From IMG/VR virus record IMGVR_UViG_3300028048_003124: a stretch of 64,000 bases of DNA, one strand, 5' to 3'. Source of the stretch: a virus. Its lineage: Duplodnaviria; Caudoviricetes. The notes under the pieces were generated by a model. It did no database searches, was not told the origin of the DNA, and saw only the letters and a list, made by a program, of their open reading frames with translations. The position numbers and the translations under genes were made by a program. Within the stretch, counting starts at the first letter, position 1. Each line of letters opens with the position of its first letter. Positions 4,088 to 51,540 of this stretch are shown piece after piece.

Positions 4088-7000
4088 ATGGATACTAATT
4101 TAAAGGCTAACATAAGTTCAGAGTATGGTAAGCTGAGTAATTGGGAGAAATCAAGGGTAGTAAAATACCTCAGATTGCTTGGTAAGAACAACTTTGATGT
4201 AATAACTTACTGTCAGATTGATGGCGTAGATTTGAATGGTCTAGAACACGCTTTTCAGGGAGAGGGTTCAGATGGCGAGTTAGGGTATCTACACTTACTG
4301 GTAGATGCTATAACACTATCTAAAGAGAAGAACAAAGGTCTGCCTGTCAGTATGTGCCTAAGTGATGATATTGAGGTAGCTGAGGTGCTTGGGCATAAAG
4401 GCTCAGAGTGTGTAGGTATCGATGGTGCGATAGGTGCGTGGAATATAGAGGTAGGAAAGGGTACTAAGGAAAAGTATGACGGCGCTGATGATAGTTGGGA
4501 AGATCAGAAGAAAGAGGATGAAGAGCGCAAGAAGAGGGAAGAAGAGGATAGAAAGAGAAGAGAGGCTGAGGATAAGGCTAAGGATGAGGAGCGGAAAAAG
4601 GAAGAGGAAAAATCCAAGCACCGTGATGAGTATGACAATCTAAGAGAAGAGATACGCAAGATTTTCAATCTTTCAATAACTCAGAACGTAGAGGGTATTC
4701 TGGAAAGGTATAGACTTCTGTTAGAGTCTGGCTATGACCTAGAAAGACCTTATGGTATTGTAAGCTCATTGGGTGTTATTTACTTAGATAGTGATAACGT
4801 GTTGAAGGTTAGAGAAGATTATGAACATGATATTGATATCAACTCATCTTTAAACATGTATAACTATTTTGAGGGTAAGTTAAATTTCGAAGAGTCTGAT
4901 TCTCGTTCTGCAAAGATGATAGGTGCAGATATACTCGAGGGTTACAGAATGCATAAGACTATTTACTTCCCTAATAAGCTGTTAGAGTATGCTTATGGTA
5001 GAGCAAGTAGTAGAGAGGAAAGTAAAAATTACTCTTACGCAAAGAGAAATGGTGAAGGCATAAGTACCAAATGGGGTAAGATGCGTGACATGATAAGGGA
5101 GGATTTGAAGATTGTTATTGAAAATTCTCTTGTTGTCTATTGTGTAAACATTCTCGGTTGTGATAAGAGTGGCAAAGATGCCAGAGAGAAGATAGTCAAG
5201 AGTGGCAAGAACTCTGAAGTTGAGGGTTTTATCAAGTATATCTCTAACAGTATGAGTAACTGTGTTATCATTATGGAATATAAGAGTACTCAGAGCAAAC
5301 CCTTAAAAATGAGGATTAGGGTATGTGATCCGAGTGGTAGTTGTTATCAAAACATGATTGGCGAGATTATAAATGTTGCTTTTTCTGGAAACACTGGTGG
5401 TTCTGAGGGTGTAACTTTATCAAGCAGTCTTAATGAGGTTGATAGTAACACATATAAGGTTTATGAATATGCCCATGAGTTTAATCATGTGCTTAGTAAT
5501 GCTATGCCTTTGTTTGCATATAAAGCATATGAAAAGTTAGCTGAGAAAGGCGAGAGTATTTCTTTCAAAGATCTAGTTCTTGGGCAGAGCATAGATGGAA
5601 CAATATTAAGAAATGGTACTCATGGTGTGAATTTGAGTGGCAATTTATTCCATTACATCAATGCAGGAAGCCGATCGGGTAAAGGTGTTATGACACTAAA
5701 CATGGTAGCAGGGGCATTACTAAGTGGTAAGGCTCTGTTTTACTTAGACAATAAACCAGATATGGCATCTATGTTAAGTGAGATAGGAGGAGGCAACACA
5801 GCAAGTGGACCCTCTTTCTTTGCATTGAATGGTAGTAACTACAATGATGACAAACAGGCTCAGTTTACAATGCAAGATTCTTGGATAAACCCAGAGCACA
5901 TACCAGTAGAGGTAGTCGAGCTTTTTGGAGAACCGAGTTGGAGTAAGCTTGGAGATTTGTTTTACATGAGAGCATATACTCTTGCTTTTGGTATAATTCT
6001 TGCAAGGGGTTTAGATGGAGGTCACGGCAAGGGTGATGATGAACGATTTGGAGGAAAACAGGGTATTTTCCTTATTTGTGATGAAACAAATATACTCCAA
6101 GATAAATTCAGATTACTTATGGAAGTGGTAGCTGATAAGATACCTTTACAGAGTAAGAATTTTAAGTCTATGTCGGCAGCTTTAATTGCCAAGTATAACG
6201 AGATGAATACAGAAGGTGCAAGAAAGGGTATTGAGGCAAAGTACGATACCATGAAACGTGATTTCGAGGAAGCCTTTAATGCGCACAAGTTTTATGCTTT
6301 AAGCTTGCTCAATATGTTTGCTGATAATATAAGTTATCTTGGTGATAAAAGTAATGCAGGTTTCTTGAGAGCTGAGTTTGAAAAGTCAGACGTAGCGGTA
6401 ATTGGTCAGAACCTAGAGCAAAGACCTATAAGCAAAGAGACAATAAGAACTTCTGTTAGTAGTGCAAGATTAACAGGAGAGGCAAGTGGTGCAAAGGGAT
6501 TAGGAGGAACGCAAGTAGCTAAAGACGTAAAGGGTAGTGCAAGCATACCTTTAGCGCATTTTGTGTTTAGTAGTTCTGATGCATTAATAGGTTATAACAG
6601 TATACATCCAGAATATCTTGCTCAAACCGAGGCTGGAAGTAATGCTTTCGGCAGACTAGATTTGAGTGCAAATAATTTCTGTTATCTTCCGAGGTTAAAT
6701 CTTGTAGAGGATGAGAAACCTGCTGTACAGTTAACAAAATCAAAGGCAAATGAGCAGAGTAGTGTTTACTTTAAACCGTATCTTATACTTAATAATTCTA
6801 GTGATGCTTATACAAGCCAGATGTTTGAAAGGGTAGCAAACGCTGGACTTCTTCCAGAAGATGTTATAAGGGAGTACCCAGATGAAAACAACAGTGGAAA
6901 AATAAGTCCTTTTGTTGGATTCCCTGAATACATGAGTCTTATGGGAGTTACTGATATTGCTGATAGACTGAAGAAGAGTGCTGACATAGCTAATTTTGTA

Positions 7001-45445: not shown

Positions 45446-46414
45446 ATGGTACTTAAAAAACGGATTATGATTATACTATGCGTTGTATTGGCATTATTGT
45501 CATTAGCAGGATGCCAAAAAGTTGTATATAAGGGTACAACTAATCCAAATAGTCATAGTGTTGCTACTGAAGATGAGGTGGTTGCTACACCTGATTCAGT
45601 TGAAGATACTGATGAAAAAGACGCCGATAAGGGTGATGATGAAGAAGAGGAAAAGGCTACTGCAGATGAGGCTTCTAAGGACGATAAGTCTGAAAACAAG
45701 AAAGATGACGATAAGAAGGACGAAGAGGATAAGAAATCAACTGAGAAGCCTACTGAGGCTCCAACGGAAAAACCAACAGAAAAGCCTACCGAGGCACCAA
45801 CAGAAGCACCTACTGAAGAGCCAACTGAGAAAACTGAGTATGAGATTGGCGAGACTAGTAGAGAAAATCCAGCTCCAAAGGGAACATGGGTTGATTATAA
45901 AGTAAGAGATTATAATACTTTGGAGATGTTTACTACAAAGGTTAAAATAAATGACATTACAACACAGTCTGAAGATGAGGATTATGTAAAAGAGGTATTA
46001 GACGATTACAATGAGTCCCATCTGGTAAAGTTGGATACAAAAAATATGTCTGCTAAGATTGAGATTGTTGTAGCAGATATAGAAATGAAAATACCAAAAG
46101 GTGAGAGCGTAGAAGATAGATTAGGAGCTCCTCACCCGATAAGTTTTGATATTGTACGTCCAAAGGGTATTGATTATCGGGATAAAGATGGTGATAAAGT
46201 TAAATTTGTCACATACGTTGGTAAATTTGAGGAGTATTCAACAACTTGTTCCGCAGGTGATACTGTAAAAACTAAGCTTATTTACGGAATGGTAAAGGGT
46301 TTTGATGATTACTATATAAAAGTCACCTCTTTCTCTGATTTTGACGGAGGGGATTGTGACTATGCATATCTAAACATTAAAAAGGAACCAGTAAAAGTAC
46401 ATAAGGATGACTAA
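45446..46414 (+). CDS. lipoprotein with acidic and TEKP/TEAP linker
   Basis: Lipobox LAGC, low-complexity linker. Confidence 0.8.
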   Translation: MVLKKRIMIILCVVLALLSLAGCQKVVYKGTTNPNSHSVATEDEVVATPDSVEDTDEKDADKGDDEEEEKATADEASKDDKSENKKDDDKKDEEDKKSTEKPTEAPTEKPTEKPTEAPTEAPTEEPTEKTEYEIGETSRENPAPKGTWVDYKVRDYNTLEMFTTKVKINDITTQSEDEDYVKEVLDDYNESHLVKLDTKNMSAKIEIVVADIEMKIPKGESVEDRLGAPHPISFDIVRPKGIDYRDKDGDKVKFVTYVGKFEEYSTTCSAGDTVKTKLIYGMVKGFDDYYIKVTSFSDFDGGDCDYAYLNIKKEPVKVHKDD

Positions 46415-46482
46415 ACTTTTACTATCAAAATAAGAGTTTGTTTAAAAAATTTATAGATTTTTTAACTTTTTTCTAGAAGGTA

Positions 46483-46511
46483 TTGCAACTATTTCTAAGT
46501 TGGTGTATAAT
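46483..46511 (+). promoter_or_regulatory. sigma-A type promoter of the RNA island
   Basis: TTGCAA-17-TATAAT preceded by an A/T-tract UP-like element. Confidence 0.75.
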
Positions 46512-46644
46512 AGCAGTACCGTAAGGGAGTTAGTCGTTAGTGGCTACTCTTTGAGGATAGTAAGTCGCAATAATCATTTAATAAGTTGACGGGTTTGGTT
46601 TCTGTTCCTGATACAATTGTAAGTGGTTTTGTGATTTAATATAA

Positions 46645-47229
46645 TGTTCCTTGACAATTGAATAAATACCTTTGATTAAGTGGTAACTCAGTGAAGAAGG
46701 AAGTGTCACTCCTGCTGAGATGGGTTTGCGATTTTGAGACGGGCGATATTTAGTAAGGATACTTCTAAGTGGAGGTCGAGATATAGTAGTGATGCTATTG
46801 AAGCTGTTTGCGTGTAATGTAAACAGATCTGAGAACCCAGTGCTGAGTATATCATTGTAAAAAGTAATTTCGATGTGACGAAGCCGTAATAGACGTCTTG
46901 TATGGCAGAATAAGATCGGTATGAGAAAGAATCCTAAAGAGATCTAAGCTTGAGGAAGTTTATTGGTCTGTAGGAAAAACCTAACTAAGGCTAACTTGAT
47001 TGGTGTTGAACCACGAAAGTGGGTATAAGTTTCAAGAAATGTACTTCTGCTAAAACCGCCAATATTAGAAGAAGCACCAAGGAGGTGCCAGTTTTAGTGA
47101 CTGTGGAAGTTGTGGGTAAATTAGTCCTACATACTATCAAGTAGTATTGACTGAATATTGCAATGGTATATAAGGTAGCTACAGTTGTAGCACCACGATT
47201 AAGGGTATTTATTCAATTGTCAAGGAGCA
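46645..47229 (+). ncRNA. ROOL-like large structured RNA (~585 nt)
   Basis: 32-bp terminal helix (29 WC + 3 G-U), no ORF in the track, internal hairpins, heads a tRNA cluster; size fits ROOL. Confidence 0.65.
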
Positions 47230-47364
47230 GCGGTGGTAGTTTATATAAAATACCAGACTGTTTTCTCGATTGTTATGTAAAAACCGAAGATCCGAAAAAC
47301 TTGTAACCCCTGTTACAATTACAGTCTGGAGAACTTCTATTAAAGAAGCCACCGTTTATTATAA

Positions 47365-47441
47365 GGGCTTTTAGCTCAGTAGGTTAGAGCAGCTGACTCA
47401 TAATCAGCAGGTCTAGGGTTCGATCCCCTAAAAGCCCACCA
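47365..47441 (+). tRNA. tRNA-CAU (probably Ile2, possibly elongator Met)
   Basis: Cloverleaf; gctga-ctcataa-tcagc; CCA; overall resemblance to Ile2 tRNAs. Confidence 0.9.
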
Positions 47442-47451
47442 TTGATAATAT

Positions 47452-47610
47452 GCGAGTTCTGAAAGAAGGTTCAGCTCCCTTTGTGGAGGTAAGAAGTAAA
47501 AACGGCATGATGAAAGGTATCGTAACCATGGCTCTACGGTATTTAGTAATTGGATGAGTCTCCCTTACCAATACAAAGGTTTGGCGGTTCGAATCCTGCA
47601 GCTCGTACCA
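47452..47610 (+). ncRNA. tRNA-like RNA A with ~100-nt expanded anticodon arm
   Basis: GCGAGTT/AGCTCGT-A-CCA acceptor, D-like hairpin, GGTTCGAATCC T-loop. Confidence 0.6.
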
Positions 47611-47959
47611 TACATATCAAAACCTGATGATACACCGTAATATAGCATAACGGCGGAAGAATGTTTCATTGAAATCCTTAATGTATCACAAACCGTAAGC
47701 AGCCCCGAACACAGAAACAACCTGTTCTCTGGGCAATCCCATAAGCGCCACACCATGCTGTGCAGAAAAGGTATCTGCGACAAGCCTTGAATAATGACAG
47801 ACGCTTAAGTAATATTTCTGGATTGACAGACCACAGACGTAACAGATACGGAAAGCACTTACAAGTGCCACCCAGTTTAAGGTCTGGGTGGACAAACTAT
47901 TTTATATGGAGATTCCGTAAGAGGTGTAGGTAGTTAAAATCTACTAATCTCCACCAAAG

Positions 47960-48350
47960 AGTGTGACATAGATTAACAAGGTCTATGGTGTAACTCATAC
48001 CGTGTTCAGAGACGGTGGATGTAATGTTCAAAACTGAAATAGATATCCGTCTAAGCCTTGAGATATGTCGGAATCGAAGGAGGGTACTCAAGGGAGTTCA
48101 CAGTGCGACAGGCAGGTGACATACCTATACTCTAGAAGTAGGTACTTGTTATTTAGACTAATGGGCAACATTGGTAGGCTTCTTTTAGAAGATAGTTGCC
48201 AACTGGAAGGGGCGTAAGGCATTTCCAGTCCAAGCCGCACGCAAAAGGGTTCTGAAATGGCGGCTTAGTAGAACCGAGAATGTACACAGGCTTTGAAAGT
48301 GTACTCGGTAGGTGTTCATGAGATTGATATAATTCCTACCGAAGCCTAAC
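47960..48350 (+). ncRNA. candidate structured ncRNA with pseudoknot
   Basis: Multiple helices; taggctt/aagccta closing stem; ggttct/agaacc loop pairing. Confidence 0.5.
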
Positions 48351-48352
48351 GA

Positions 48353-48538
48353 CGGGTAATAGTTTAATGGTAAAACACTTCCCGAGGGTAAGAAAGTTAG
48401 TATAACAGCAGGCTCCATTACTCGAATGTGAGGGTTTGGTAATTTATACTAGGAGTAAGGTATAATTACAAGTTATTTGGTGTAAGCCCATCTTATCTTT
48501 GTATGGAGGAAACGTAGGTTCGAGTCCTGCTTATCCGT
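48353..48538 (+). ncRNA. tRNA-like RNA B with 122-nt insert in place of the anticodon loop
   Basis: Canonical acceptor, D, anticodon and T stems; loop 48383-48504. Confidence 0.7.
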
Positions 48539-48548
48539 AATAAAACAT

Positions 48549-48635
48549 GGGGGATTGGTGTAATTGGCAGACACAAGGGATTTAAGTTCCCTTGAAGGCA
48601 ACTTCGTATGGGTTCAAGTCCCATATCCCCCACCA
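48549..48635 (+). tRNA. tRNA-Leu(UAA)
   Basis: Cloverleaf; aggga-tttaagt-tccct; long variable arm; CCA. Confidence 0.93.
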
Positions 48636-48650
48636 GATGATAGGTTTTTT

Positions 48651-49026
48651 ATGGCAGGAATAAAATACGTTTTTAGTAACTACTCAGAAGAGGATTTGAA
48701 AAGCCTTATAGCAAGTTGTACATCTATTGCGGAGTTAGGTAGAAAATTAGGCTTAAGTGGCAGAAATGTGTACAATGTAGGTGAGAGGTTACAGGATTTA
48801 TATCCTGAAGAATTTGCTTATTATACTGGATTGCCATGCTTTAACAGATAACTATAGAGGTAAGAATTCTACCAACAGGTGTTATGTATCAGACGATAAA
48901 ATACTAGAAGTTATCAAGACTAAAGAAAATGTTAGGCAGGTACTATTAGAGCTGAATTTACCTGCTTCTGGTCATTCTTATAAAAGGGTTAGAGAATTAG
49001 CCAGAAGTATAGGAATTTATTGGTAA
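48651..49026 (+). pseudogene. degenerate HNH homing endonuclease
   Basis: Two overlapping frames: YSEEDLK...SIAELGRKLGL N-terminus and NL...CH..TDNYRGKN HNH tail; core appears deleted. Confidence 0.65.
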
Positions 49027-49040
49027 TAAATATAATAGTA

Positions 49041-49071
49041 GGTGTGGGTTCAAGTCCCATCACCGCTACCA
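49041..49071 (+). pseudogene. orphan tRNA 3' half
   Basis: gtgggttcaagtcccat T-arm + caccgct-a-cca with no adjacent 5' half. Confidence 0.7.
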
Positions 49072-49136
49072 CAGAAGGGCAAGAACATTCACTTGCCCTT
49101 AAACTTTATTTAAAGTTTGAAGGTGTAATATTGTAG

Positions 49137-49381
49137 ATGAAGAATGTAGTTATTTTTATCATAGCTCTATTACTTGTACTGACTTTTGTGTTCGGTGCAA
49201 GCAGTTGTAGTACTCACGATAGTCGGCAAAATGTAGGTACTCCAGATGAGGTACAAAATGGAATGTAGGAACACTAAAATCGGGTATTACTCCGTTATAT
49301 GATAAAAATGGTAATATAATGAAGTACCAAGAGTTTGAAGACGCTGTTAAATACTACAATATAAGGGTTTATGATGATTAG
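49137..49381 (+). pseudogene. frameshifted small lipoprotein gene
   Basis: MKNVVIF...ASSC signal stops at 49270; SGITPLYDKNG... continues in another frame. Confidence 0.5.
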
Positions 49382-49448
49382 GGTTGGTTAGTGTTAAAAT
49401 TGATTAATTCTCAATGTTTCATTATAGTAAAAACTTTTATTAAGCCTA

Positions 49449-49477
49449 TTGCATTTTGTGGCAAGATATGGTAAAAT
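49449..49477 (+). promoter_or_regulatory. sigma-A type promoter
   Basis: TTGCAT-17-TAAAAT with TG extension, upstream of tRNA-Gly. Confidence 0.65.
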
Positions 49478-49513
49478 AAGTATGTTCTTAAAAAGTTAAA
49501 TTTTAAGAAGTAT

Positions 49514-49587
49514 GCAGGTGTAGTTCAACGGTAGAACATCAGTTCCCCAAGCTGAGTACATGGGTTCAATCCCCATTATCTGCTCCA
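49514..49587 (+). tRNA. tRNA-Gly(CCC), atypical C33
   Basis: Cloverleaf; tcagt-tccccaa-gctga; U73 + CCA. Confidence 0.85.
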
Positions 49588-49987
49588 CAGGCGTTATTAA
49601 ACGTCTGTTTGATGGGCGTCATACCAGTGCTTTTTGCGAACATGTATTGTGTCCCTGTCGCCCTGATATGGGTAGTAAGATGCGAAAGCATTTAGCTATA
49701 GAAAAACTCTTGTTGAGAGGTTCTTCTTCGTGGCTATTAGGGAGAGCCTCTCCCCCTAAGGGTTGTAATTGGTTTTAATACATATATAATATAACTTATA
49801 TTTGTATTAAAGCTTATTACAACACGGGTGATAAGCTTTAATGCGTCCAACACATGTAGGCTGATGTGTGGTACAGGCATTTGTTCACTTGGTTTATGCC
49901 ATGTGAACCCTCCAACCAAGTGGGGTTCTGAGCTCATTTAAGGACCCCACAATTTTTATAAAATAACTAAAAATTTTCTTAATGTAC

Positions 49988-50016
49988 TTGCAATATATGG
50001 TAATTTATGGTAAGAT
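49988..50016 (+). promoter_or_regulatory. sigma-A type promoter
   Basis: TTGCAA-17-TAAGAT with TG extension, upstream of tRNA-Pro. Confidence 0.65.
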
Positions 50017-50082
50017 ACAGACATCAAAATAAAACCTTAGTATTTGTCTTATGAAAGACGAGGGTACAAAGCGTTTAAATAA

Positions 50083-50157
50083 CGAGGTGTAGCCCAGGGG
50101 TAGAGCGCTTGGTTTGGGACCAAGATGCCGCAGGTTCGATTCCTGTCACCTCGACCA
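50083..50157 (+). tRNA. tRNA-Pro(UGG)
   Basis: Cloverleaf; cttgg-tttggga-ccaag; C1-G72, A73, CCA. Confidence 0.95.
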
Positions 50158-50292
50158 CGAGTTATAGTAATTTGTTTTGTCGGTAGCCATACGATTTGTT
50201 TTTAGGAGATCTCGATAAAATCTCAAAAACCAAAAATGGAGTTGGGGTGTGCTTAATAAATATAAGCATAACCCCATCTCAAGTGTCGATAT

Positions 50293-50391
50293 GCTAATGT
50301 TAGTGTAACTGGAAGCACCCCACTGGAAAGGCGAGCGGTATGCCGTCATAAGCAAATGTGGCAGTAGCAGGTTCGAGTCCTGTCATTAGCA
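50293..50391 (+). ncRNA. tRNA-like RNA C with ~34-nt anticodon loop
   Basis: GCTAATG/CATTAGC acceptor, gtgt/gcac D-stem, ccac/gtgg stem, GCAGGTTCGAGTCCTGT. Confidence 0.6.
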
Positions 50392-50397
50392 AACAAA

Positions 50398-50762
50398 AGT
50401 GAGGAATCGGTAAAGGTTTCAGACTCACAGAGGTATGCCAGAAGCTGTACCATTCAGTTCCCTCTCCTTTACAGTGAGCAAGAGGCATATTGCTTGATGG
50501 GCACAAGGGTTGAAAGTGTCCATGGATACCCTAATGTGTAAGGCGGTGTGGGTTGCAAGCCGTCGTCAAGATAGTTGATACCCGTGAATACTGCCGTATA
50601 AACGGTGCGCTGAAAGCGGCAGTGAGGTTGGTGTCGGAAATATCAACCAATAGGCAATGTATGCAGTTGGTAGAAAGCATACTCACAAATATATGTGTAC
50701 CAACAACGCATTCAGCCCCTGAGAGAATGCATCTAGGGAGTTTTAGAGTTAAACTCCCTACG
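50398..50762 (+). ncRNA. candidate multi-hairpin ncRNA
   Basis: Consecutive helices atgggcac/gtgtccat, actgccg/cggcagt, ggttggtgt/atatcaacc, gttggta/taccaac, tagggagttt/aaactcccta. Confidence 0.5.
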
Positions 50763-50775
50763 ATGGGGTAAATAA

Positions 50776-50851
50776 TCCTCATTAGCTCAGTCGGTAGAGC
50801 ATGCGGCTGTTAACCGCAGGGTCGTTGGTTCGAGTCCAACATGGGGAGCCA
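50776..50851 (+). tRNA. tRNA-Asn(GUU)
   Basis: Cloverleaf; tgcgg-ctgttaa-ccgca; G73 + CCA. Confidence 0.95.
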
Positions 50852-51091
50852 GGAGAGTCCTATAATCTAACTATCGATTACTGAAACTGGTTATGGTGAG
50901 AGATGTCTAAGGGCTAATGGATCAGTTAGATGGCTTCGTATCATCTGGTTAGGCTACCCAGACAATACGTAGAGTCTAAGTCTGCATAGTCCCTAAGGCT
51001 AACCGAAGGACAGGGAGTAAGTCATACAAGTTAGGGTATGTATCGTGATCACAGTATAGCCCTCGTACTGAAAACCTAACAGAGGGTACAC

Positions 51092-51165
51092 GCAGGTATG
51101 GTGTAAGGGTAGCACAACAGCCTTCCAAGCTGTTGGTGAGGGTTCGAATCCCTTTACTTGCTCCA
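51092..51165 (+). tRNA. tRNA-Gly(UCC)
   Basis: Cloverleaf; acagc-cttccaa-gctgt; U73 + CCA. Confidence 0.95.
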
Positions 51166-51192
51166 TAATAATTAATTGGGGAGTTGAAAATA

Positions 51193-51390
51193 ATGGTAGG
51201 TTGTATCATCTCTTTTTTATTCGGAGGAGTGTTCGGAGTTGGTATCATGTGCATTATGAACATAAGCAGCGCTAATTCCAGAATTGAGGAGGCTATGATG
51301 AAAAATGAGAGAAGCCACGAAGAGGGAGTACATATGAACAATGATGAAAGTTGGGATTTTTACTTCAGCGGTGGTAATGTTAAAAAGTAA
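51193..51390 (+). CDS. small membrane protein (DUF3789-like)
   Basis: FLFGGVFGVGIMCIM hydrophobic segment; GGGGAG RBS. Confidence 0.55.
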   Translation: MVGCIISFLFGGVFGVGIMCIMNISSANSRIEEAMMKNERSHEEGVHMNNDESWDFYFSGGNVKK

Positions 51391-51410
51391 TCTTTAAAAC
51401 CATAATAAGT

Positions 51411-51447
51411 ATTGACCATCTTCTTTTTAAGGATGGTCAATTTTTTT
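51411..51447 (+). terminator. intrinsic terminator ending the RNA island
   Basis: attgaccatctt / aaggatggtcaat plus T-run. Confidence 0.85.
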
Positions 51448-51540
51448 GTAATAATGTATTAAAATTATAGAAGTGTATGTTTACTTACATACATTGTAAT
51501 AGATATTTTGTTGTTTATTATATCTGTTTAAGGAAGAAGT

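Follow-up and report, generated by a model that had tools for sequence, protein, structure and literature searches.

The 64,000-nt stretch of DNA analysed here (the window) contains, at 47452-47610 on the + strand, a 159-nt tRNA-shaped gene (RNA A) with an ACCA encoded at its 3' end, and the question that this locus raises is what kind of RNA is specified by a gene that resembles a tRNA at both ends and carries a long folded arm in between. The window belongs to an uncultured 229-kb element from cattle and sheep rumen which encodes sortases, pilins, BspA-type and dockerin proteins, an actin-like partition protein, a UvrD helicase and a RecJ/DHH-like protein. About 380 homologues of the RecJ-like protein occur on metagenomic contigs, the largest of 276 kb, and four distant relatives of the element are filed as viral in IMG/VR, two of them with direct terminal repeats. 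Similar elements were not detected in INPHARED, PLSDB or GTDB genomes, and from the contig sizes, the viral relatives in IMG/VR and these empty searches the element is called large phage- or plasmid-like. RNA A is located in an island of about 5 kb (about 46414-51540) in which no open reading frame (ORF) is longer than 95 aa and which contains a ROOL RNA and six canonical tRNAs, the latter ending in an encoded CCA, as RNA A does.

The initial annotation had described RNA A as a tRNA-like RNA with an expanded arm, and all the features listed for it were found at 47452-47610 with the coordinates claimed. The two ends of the gene form a 7-bp acceptor stem that includes two G-U pairs (47452-47458 with 47600-47606) and is followed by the discriminator A and CCA (47607-47610); the third pair is G3-C70 and hence there is no G3-U70. 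The D-like hairpin (47459-47474; CTGAA/TTCAG, 5 bp, loop AGAAGG) contains GG in its loop and has no 8-9 spacer ahead of it, and in the copy present on a related contig (L001) the loop has one extra base and the GG is kept. The distance between the D hairpin and the following arm is 3-4 nt rather than 1. Where a tRNA has its anticodon stem, RNA A has a long-arm helix CCTTTGT/ACAAAGG (47478-47484 with 47573-47579), and the complete arm consists of this 7-bp helix, a 3x3 internal loop, the 6-bp inner helix P1 (GGTAAG/CTTACC; 47488-47493 with 47564-47569) and the 70 nt enclosed by P1 (47494-47563), a domain referred to as the cargo. A small hairpin GGA-loop-TCC (47552-47563) lies directly 5' of the 3' strand of P1. 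The T arm (47583-47599) has the loop TTCGAAT (47588-47594) and a stem (47583-47587 with 47595-47599) with two mismatches, so that 3 of 5 pairs are formed in the window and 4 of 5 in L001. The traits that RNA A has in common with tRNAs are the 7-bp acceptor, the discriminator, the CCA, a T loop of the form TTCRANY and the GG of the D loop.

Partition function calculations gave pair probabilities of about 1.0 for the long arm, 0.98-1.0 for P1 and 0.6-0.99 for the acceptor, and no confident pairing for the interior or the T stem; taken by itself, the folding energy of RNA A lacks significance (z -0.75). The arm fold is favoured by 5-7 kcal/mol over a competing anticodon-like hairpin of 4 bp with a 6-nt loop (47475 to about 47488), the 'anticodon' of which reads UGU in the window and UGA in L001. 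These sequence features and the arm fold bear out the description of RNA A as a tRNA-like RNA with an expanded arm. Because the known copies are near-identical, no compensatory double change is seen for any helix of RNA A. At 47525-47534, within the cargo, two GGTAT motifs can make a 10-bp hairpin with a 10-nt loop containing the palindrome CCATGG, for which a loop-loop duplex of -10 kcal/mol was calculated; the hairpin is improbable in the thermodynamic ensemble, and according to this modelling the CCATGG loop is a possible kissing-dimer site. In addition, the 3' strand of the arm has an 8-nt complementarity to the anticodon loop of another RNA of the island, RNA B.

ARAGORN, run with or without introns, made no call on RNA A, and Rfam model RF00005 gave no match over 47452-47610 at E<=5. 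In a deletion test on RNA A that combined all start points from 47472 to 47499 with all end points from 47555 to 47583, only one of the 812 products was called as a tRNA (an odd 80-nt 'Gly' of poor quality), as compared to 80 of 256 products of RNA B, almost all of which were called as tRNA-Thr(UGU). RNA A was therefore rejected as a tRNA, as there is no model match and no 5-bp stem with a 7-nt anticodon loop can be recovered by deletion. With its anticodon arm replaced by a folded arm of ~100 bases, RNA A cannot read codons. An assignment to the Y RNAs was rejected as well, because the Ro60-binding motif GNCGAAN0-1G is absent from RNAs A, B and C and no TROVE/Ro60 gene was detected either in four related records or among the scanned ORFs of the window.

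RNA B (48352-48539, + strand) was identified by ARAGORN, when introns were permitted, as a tRNA-Thr(UGU) that is interrupted after position 32 by an insert of 115 nt (48384-48498), and unlike all other tRNAs of the island it does not encode CCA. Homologues with an insert of 110-115 nt in the same place are present in L001, L004:3668-3850 and L016:562-744, and the anchor proteins of L004 and L016 are about 70% identical to that of the window. In L004 and L016 the acceptor sequence of B is wholly different and all 7 pairs are kept, 6 of them with both partners changed; compensatory changes between lineages are likewise seen in the T stem and in three helices of the insert, and the split anticodon loop (C...TTGTAT) is invariant. 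The pairing kept by covariation indicates that B is a long-maintained, structured, insert-bearing tRNA. As judged from this comparison of sequences, B is a true tRNA-Thr(UGU) whose insert is conserved, and it is different in kind from A. No known intron type fits the insert of B, which is also without a terminal G. Group I introns are about 200 nt or more in length, and this class was rejected for the inserts of A and B, which measure 82-115 nt, that of B following C and ending in T or C; neither RF00028 nor any other Rfam intron model matched A or B at E<=5. A bulge-helix-bulge intron was rejected for the B-type insert after inspection by hand of the junctions of B and of its L004 homologue, at which no two 3-nt bulges with a 4-bp helix could be drawn.

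It had also been proposed that the inserts of A and B are related to each other. All motif strings quoted for the two inserts are present in both, and one part of the proposal stands, as the closing helix is shared beyond chance; the interiors are unrelated according to alignment, profile HMM and covariance model. The similarity of the whole inserts does not stand up against shuffled sequences, being not significant in local alignment (332 of 1000 shuffles) and marginal in global alignment (z 2.3; 23 of 1000). A search by nhmmer with a profile of four B-type inserts found no match on A even at E<=100, and R1, the covariance model built from A, scores B at 14.2 bits, which is below the scores of ordinary tRNAs. 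The AAC(G/A)GCA motif occupies non-equivalent structural positions in B and in its L004 homologue. An identical run of 8 nt starting at the first paired base of both inserts was reproduced in 6 of 200,000 shuffles, or in 133 of 200,000 when 0-3 nt of slack was allowed. In both inserts a small hairpin directly precedes the 3' strand of the closing helix, the B-type counterpart of the A hairpin being GG-TGTAAGY-CC, and the closing helix GGTAAG/CTTAYC is also found in the L004 form of B. Judged by these comparisons, A and B appear related through the adaptor helix only.

In the IMG/VR relative G001, a tRNA-like gene of 101 nt is located directly after ROOL at L017:7205-7307 (= G001:C1:101979-102079, minus strand), and an 8-bp GGTAA/TTATC helix, capped by the 9-nt loop TTGTATAAG, extends its anticodon arm. 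As the same helix recurs and its contents differ, a shared adaptor helix is indicated and modularity is suggested, on three contexts. A more far-reaching idea is that A, B and the hairpin-only gene of L017 form one modular system, in which the adaptor GGUAAG/CUUAYC grafts exchangeable cargoes onto tRNA bodies in ROOL-headed tRNA islands and B is either a member with a retained arm or a novel bacterial tRNA intron, spliced by a protein or by itself, for which the same adaptor forms the base; we regard this as doubtful, with some chance of being correct. If it were true, the system would be a natural tRNA scaffold which uses host tRNA processing to make and stabilise noncoding effector RNAs, and which perhaps delivers such RNAs, for instance to the ROOL nanocage or to the ribosome.

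The copy of RNA A in L001 (5785-5944) is 95.0% identical to that of the window, and the arm with its insert is 97.1% identical; as controls, tRNA-Met and B are 97.4% and 98.4% identical between the same two sequences. The RecJ-like proteins of the two elements are 83% identical, and third codon positions of the RecJ-like gene, which is adjacent, are 56.5% identical. Identity is 34% in the spacer between ROOL and tRNA-Met and 50% in the 10-nt linker ahead of A. When the window, L001 and two strain variants from sequencing runs were compared (n=4), 12 sites of RNA A were variable. Six of these are in loops or linkers, and three keep a pair, namely 47457 T>C in L001, which converts a U-G pair of the acceptor to C-G, 47576 A>G, where the arm pair is kept as U-G, and 47569 C>T, where the P1 pair is kept as G-U. 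Of two variable sites in the T stem, one restores a pair and the other swaps one mismatch for another, and at the remaining site (47484 T>A, L001) no more than a terminal pair of the arm is lost. The cargo is invariant in the four variants apart from 47557 (one change per 70 nt), where A>C in L001 falls within the loop of the small hairpin and would disrupt a competing MFE helix. This comparison shows strong purifying selection on RNA A.

From metatranscriptome contigs obtained in two studies, it is evident that RNA A is covered with its insert in place, at depths of 107, 174 and 33. Silent flanks have depths of 0-5 in the same RNA runs and are evenly covered in a DNA run, which shows that the signal of RNA A is not DNA carry-over. 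The statement of the initial annotation that RNA A does not represent random decay thus agrees with an identity of 95%, as compared to about 56% at neutral sites, and with its presence in RNA contigs. RNA A is a real gene on two independent grounds, conservation and expression. A joint skipping the insert of A or B was not present in the RNA contigs, which drop rare forms. RNA contigs from three runs of the two studies extend through RNA A and end at 47847-47858; a DNA contig reaches beyond this point. Both borders of RNA A are crossed by RNA contigs, which give no read-level RNA ends.

The ORF-free stretch following RNA A (47611-47858, + strand) is co-expressed according to the RNA contigs, and its identity to L001 is 83-89%. 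Probably the stretch specifies a further structured RNA, which may be independent or may extend A at the 3' end. The ends of the RNA contigs at 47847-47858 coincide with a short hairpin. Upstream of RNA A, ROOL (46663-47208, + strand; Rfam 129.7 bits) reaches an RNA contig depth of 700-2500 and is preceded by a promoter-like site at 46617-46645 (+ strand) found in a promoter scan, and tRNA-Met(CAU) (47365-47441, + strand) ends 10 nt upstream of A. The first terminator-like site after the ROOL promoter is at 49075, and with the promoter located before ROOL, the genes for ROOL, tRNA-Met, A, the conserved RNA, B and tRNA-Leu are probably transcribed as one unit.

Taken as a whole, RNA A is probably a non-decoding, tRNA-scaffolded stable RNA which is cut from the ROOL-tRNA transcript and of which the cargo is the working part. 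We infer the processing route, the mature size of 159 nt and the role of the cargo as functional part. The promoter that precedes ROOL would drive transcription of RNA A along with ROOL, tRNA-Met, B and other structured RNAs, and the tRNA-like top half of RNA A (acceptor with ACCA, D-like hairpin with GG, and T loop) would serve as a substrate for host tRNA-processing enzymes. Cleavage by RNase P at the 5' end and 3' trimming to CCA would release RNA A from the polycistronic precursor and stabilise it; as the acceptor-D spacer is missing and 3-4 nt follow the D hairpin, recognition of RNA A by RNase P is assumed. The cargo, held on a rigid arm and adaptor helix, would then act on a partner, which may be a protein, another RNA or a second copy of A.

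As the RNA contigs cross both borders of A and end near 47855, A could belong to a longer RNA, either as the 5' tRNA-like module of an RNA of ~400 nt (47452 to about 47858) or within a precursor, with no 159-nt form being released. The contigs of three runs, which cross 47610 unbroken and end where the DNA contig does not, favour such a longer RNA, as does the conservation of 83-89% over 47611-47900 itself. However, A ends, as do all canonical tRNAs of the island, in an encoded ACCA, identity falls from 95% in A to 83% just after it and is 50% in the 10-nt linker before it, and contigs cannot show RNA ends, so that this explanation appears unlikely to us while still deserving attention. A has tRNA-like ends and is flanked, within one transcription unit, by a tRNA and a conserved RNA, which would also fit a processing 'punctuation' mark that recruits RNase P or 3' trimming to split tRNA-Met from the downstream structured RNA and has no function of its own. 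For such a mark an ordinary tRNA or a minihelix would suffice, and the best-conserved part of A is the 70-nt cargo, which is superfluous for a cleavage signal; this role is accordingly considered improbable.

The other explanations of RNA A start from known kinds of gene. That A is an intron-bearing tRNA like B, from which removal of the insert yields a decoding tRNA, might be suspected from the closing helix common to both inserts and from the resemblance of 47475-47489 to the spliced anticodon arm of a tRNA-Thr(UGU). Against this stand the deletion test (1 of 812 versus 80 of 256 for B), the spacer of 3-4 nt between D hairpin and arm, the 6-nt loop, a third 'anticodon' base that differs in L001, the lack of a joint in the RNA contigs and the lack of an RtcB gene in four related records and among those ORFs of the window that were scanned, and it is very improbable that A is such a tRNA. 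About equally remote, and if anything slightly more so, is a decaying duplicate (pseudogene) of a tRNA or of B; the imperfect T stem, the non-canonical D arm and the silence of the tRNA finders would agree with decay, whereas the expression of RNA A and its 95% identity versus about 56% at neutral sites contradict it. A miniature tmRNA or a gene for a small peptide recommends itself by the combination of a tRNA-like domain with a long helix, as in tmRNA, and by an SD-like GGAGG which is located ahead of P1, 17 nt before an ATG at 47507, the start of the only ORF in RNA A (16 aa). The spacing of SD and ATG is too long, L001 lacks the stop codon (TGA) and stays open in this frame through the T arm, so that the ORF is not conserved, and A has G3-C70, on which grounds the candidate was rejected. 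The earlier claim that RNA A is no standard tmRNA was likewise upheld by G3-C70 in place of G3-U70 and by the silence of ARAGORN and the Rfam tmRNA models; the same models call true tmRNAs in the related loci L031 and L032. A miniature tmRNA or peptide gene is thus the least credible of these explanations, and we give it hardly any weight.

A search with the covariance model R1 found two high-scoring copies of A only, those of the window and of L001. No further member was detected by R1 in 410 kb of loci and four whole related records. A full-length hit of 22.6 bits on the minus strand of L006 (4646-4804) was rejected, because it is AT-rich, lies on the strand opposite to the island and reaches a score typical of plain tRNAs. 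Among related contigs anchored by protein, A is present in L001 alone, and many related elements have an RNA island without A or no island near the anchor gene. In L006, an element with a relatedness of 70%, the slot of A after tRNA-Met is occupied by a different tRNA-like gene (5802-5936), in which the acceptor and T arms are perfect and the anticodon loop is interrupted by an insert of 52 nt (ARAGORN Leu-CAG). By blastn, A had no match in INPHARED phages (T4 included) and none of relevance in PLSDB plasmids, a tblastn search of phages with the RecJ-like protein encoded nearby gave no relevant match, and no relative of A was found in IMG/VR using exact or gapped patterns or in GTDB genomes by protein and by pattern. 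An A-type pattern had four matches in GTDB, of which three look by eye like the 3' ends of Bacteroidota tmRNAs, and a pattern scan of JGI metagenomes yielded one more B-type copy (L016) and nothing else.

Other unusual RNA genes were noticed in the same island and in those of its relatives. A 99-nt tRNA-like gene at 50293-50391, with a weak Rfam score of 33 bits, has an insert of ~27 nt containing GGAAAGGCG, and RNA contigs with a depth of 800-1300 start inside this gene and reach about 50740, over the stretch 50325-50740. Similar tRNA-like genes of 99-103 nt with GGAAAGCG in their inserts occur in the IMG/VR relatives G004, about 100 nt before ROOL, and G003, in a tRNA island without a ROOL match. 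The gene for tRNA-Leu(UAA) is interrupted by a 457-nt segment (48586-49042) with two small ORFs, which carries its own T arm and acceptor 3' strand, and a second 3' half of tRNA-Leu is found at about 49044-49071. A related DNA contig (run X2) is without this segment and has 24 other bases there, and the segment looks like a small mobile insertion that rebuilds its target tRNA. The tRNA islands of distant relatives contain tmRNA genes at L031:1663-2036 (G004), together with ROOL in that island, and at L032:5097-5470 (G003), and ARAGORN predicts for L032 a tRNA-Ile with a 211-nt insert.

With regard to known systems, species 1 and 2 of phage T4 (rnaC and rnaD) are small stable RNAs which are encoded in the T4 tRNA gene cluster, co-transcribed with the tRNAs and processed like them, and which have tRNA-like ends. 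Compared by description, A is longer than these RNAs, has a defined arm with an adaptor helix and belongs to a rumen element of Firmicutes type. The order of acceptor, reduced D region, long helix, internal domain, T arm and ACCA in A is similar to that of tmRNA, but A is without G3-U70, a conserved tag ORF, pseudoknots or a model match. As in intron-containing tRNA genes, the canonical body of B is interrupted in the anticodon loop, whereas A has no loop to restore. YrlA and other bacterial Y RNAs (RF02553; Chen et al. 2014, PMC4201824) are non-decoding and consist of a tRNA-like module and a Ro60-docking helix. Similarly, A is non-decoding and has a tRNA-like module joined to a helix; the wiring is reversed in YrlA, both ends of which lie in the Ro60-binding stem, and A has no Rfam match. 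ROOL and GOLLD RNAs sit in phage tRNA arrays, and some GOLLDs embed a tRNA (PMC5737381; PMC12990946; bioRxiv 2024.12.08.627333). The tRNAs linked to GOLLD and ROOL are ordinary ones; A shares an island headed by ROOL but is no ordinary tRNA, and an arm-bearing tRNA mimic adjoining ROOL is not described in the searchable literature. RNA A is undescribed in the databases and literature searched. In the engineered tRNA scaffold of Ponchon and Dardel, a cargo RNA is reportedly grafted via a helix onto the anticodon stem and is processed and stabilised by the cell; that scaffold is a laboratory design, and by analogy A would be its natural counterpart.

On present evidence RNA A is a solid new gene and not a mechanism. 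The tRNA islands of phages and plasmids are usually read as codon-supply devices, and here such an island also encodes non-decoding tRNA-shaped RNAs. The island is headed by the nanocage-forming ROOL, and these tRNA-shaped RNAs keep tRNA processing handles, are conserved like tRNAs and reach high abundance in rumen RNA. Should the adaptor helix be a grafting point for different cargoes, this would represent a natural form of the tRNA-scaffold trick and would provide a concrete handle on ROOL-type islands.
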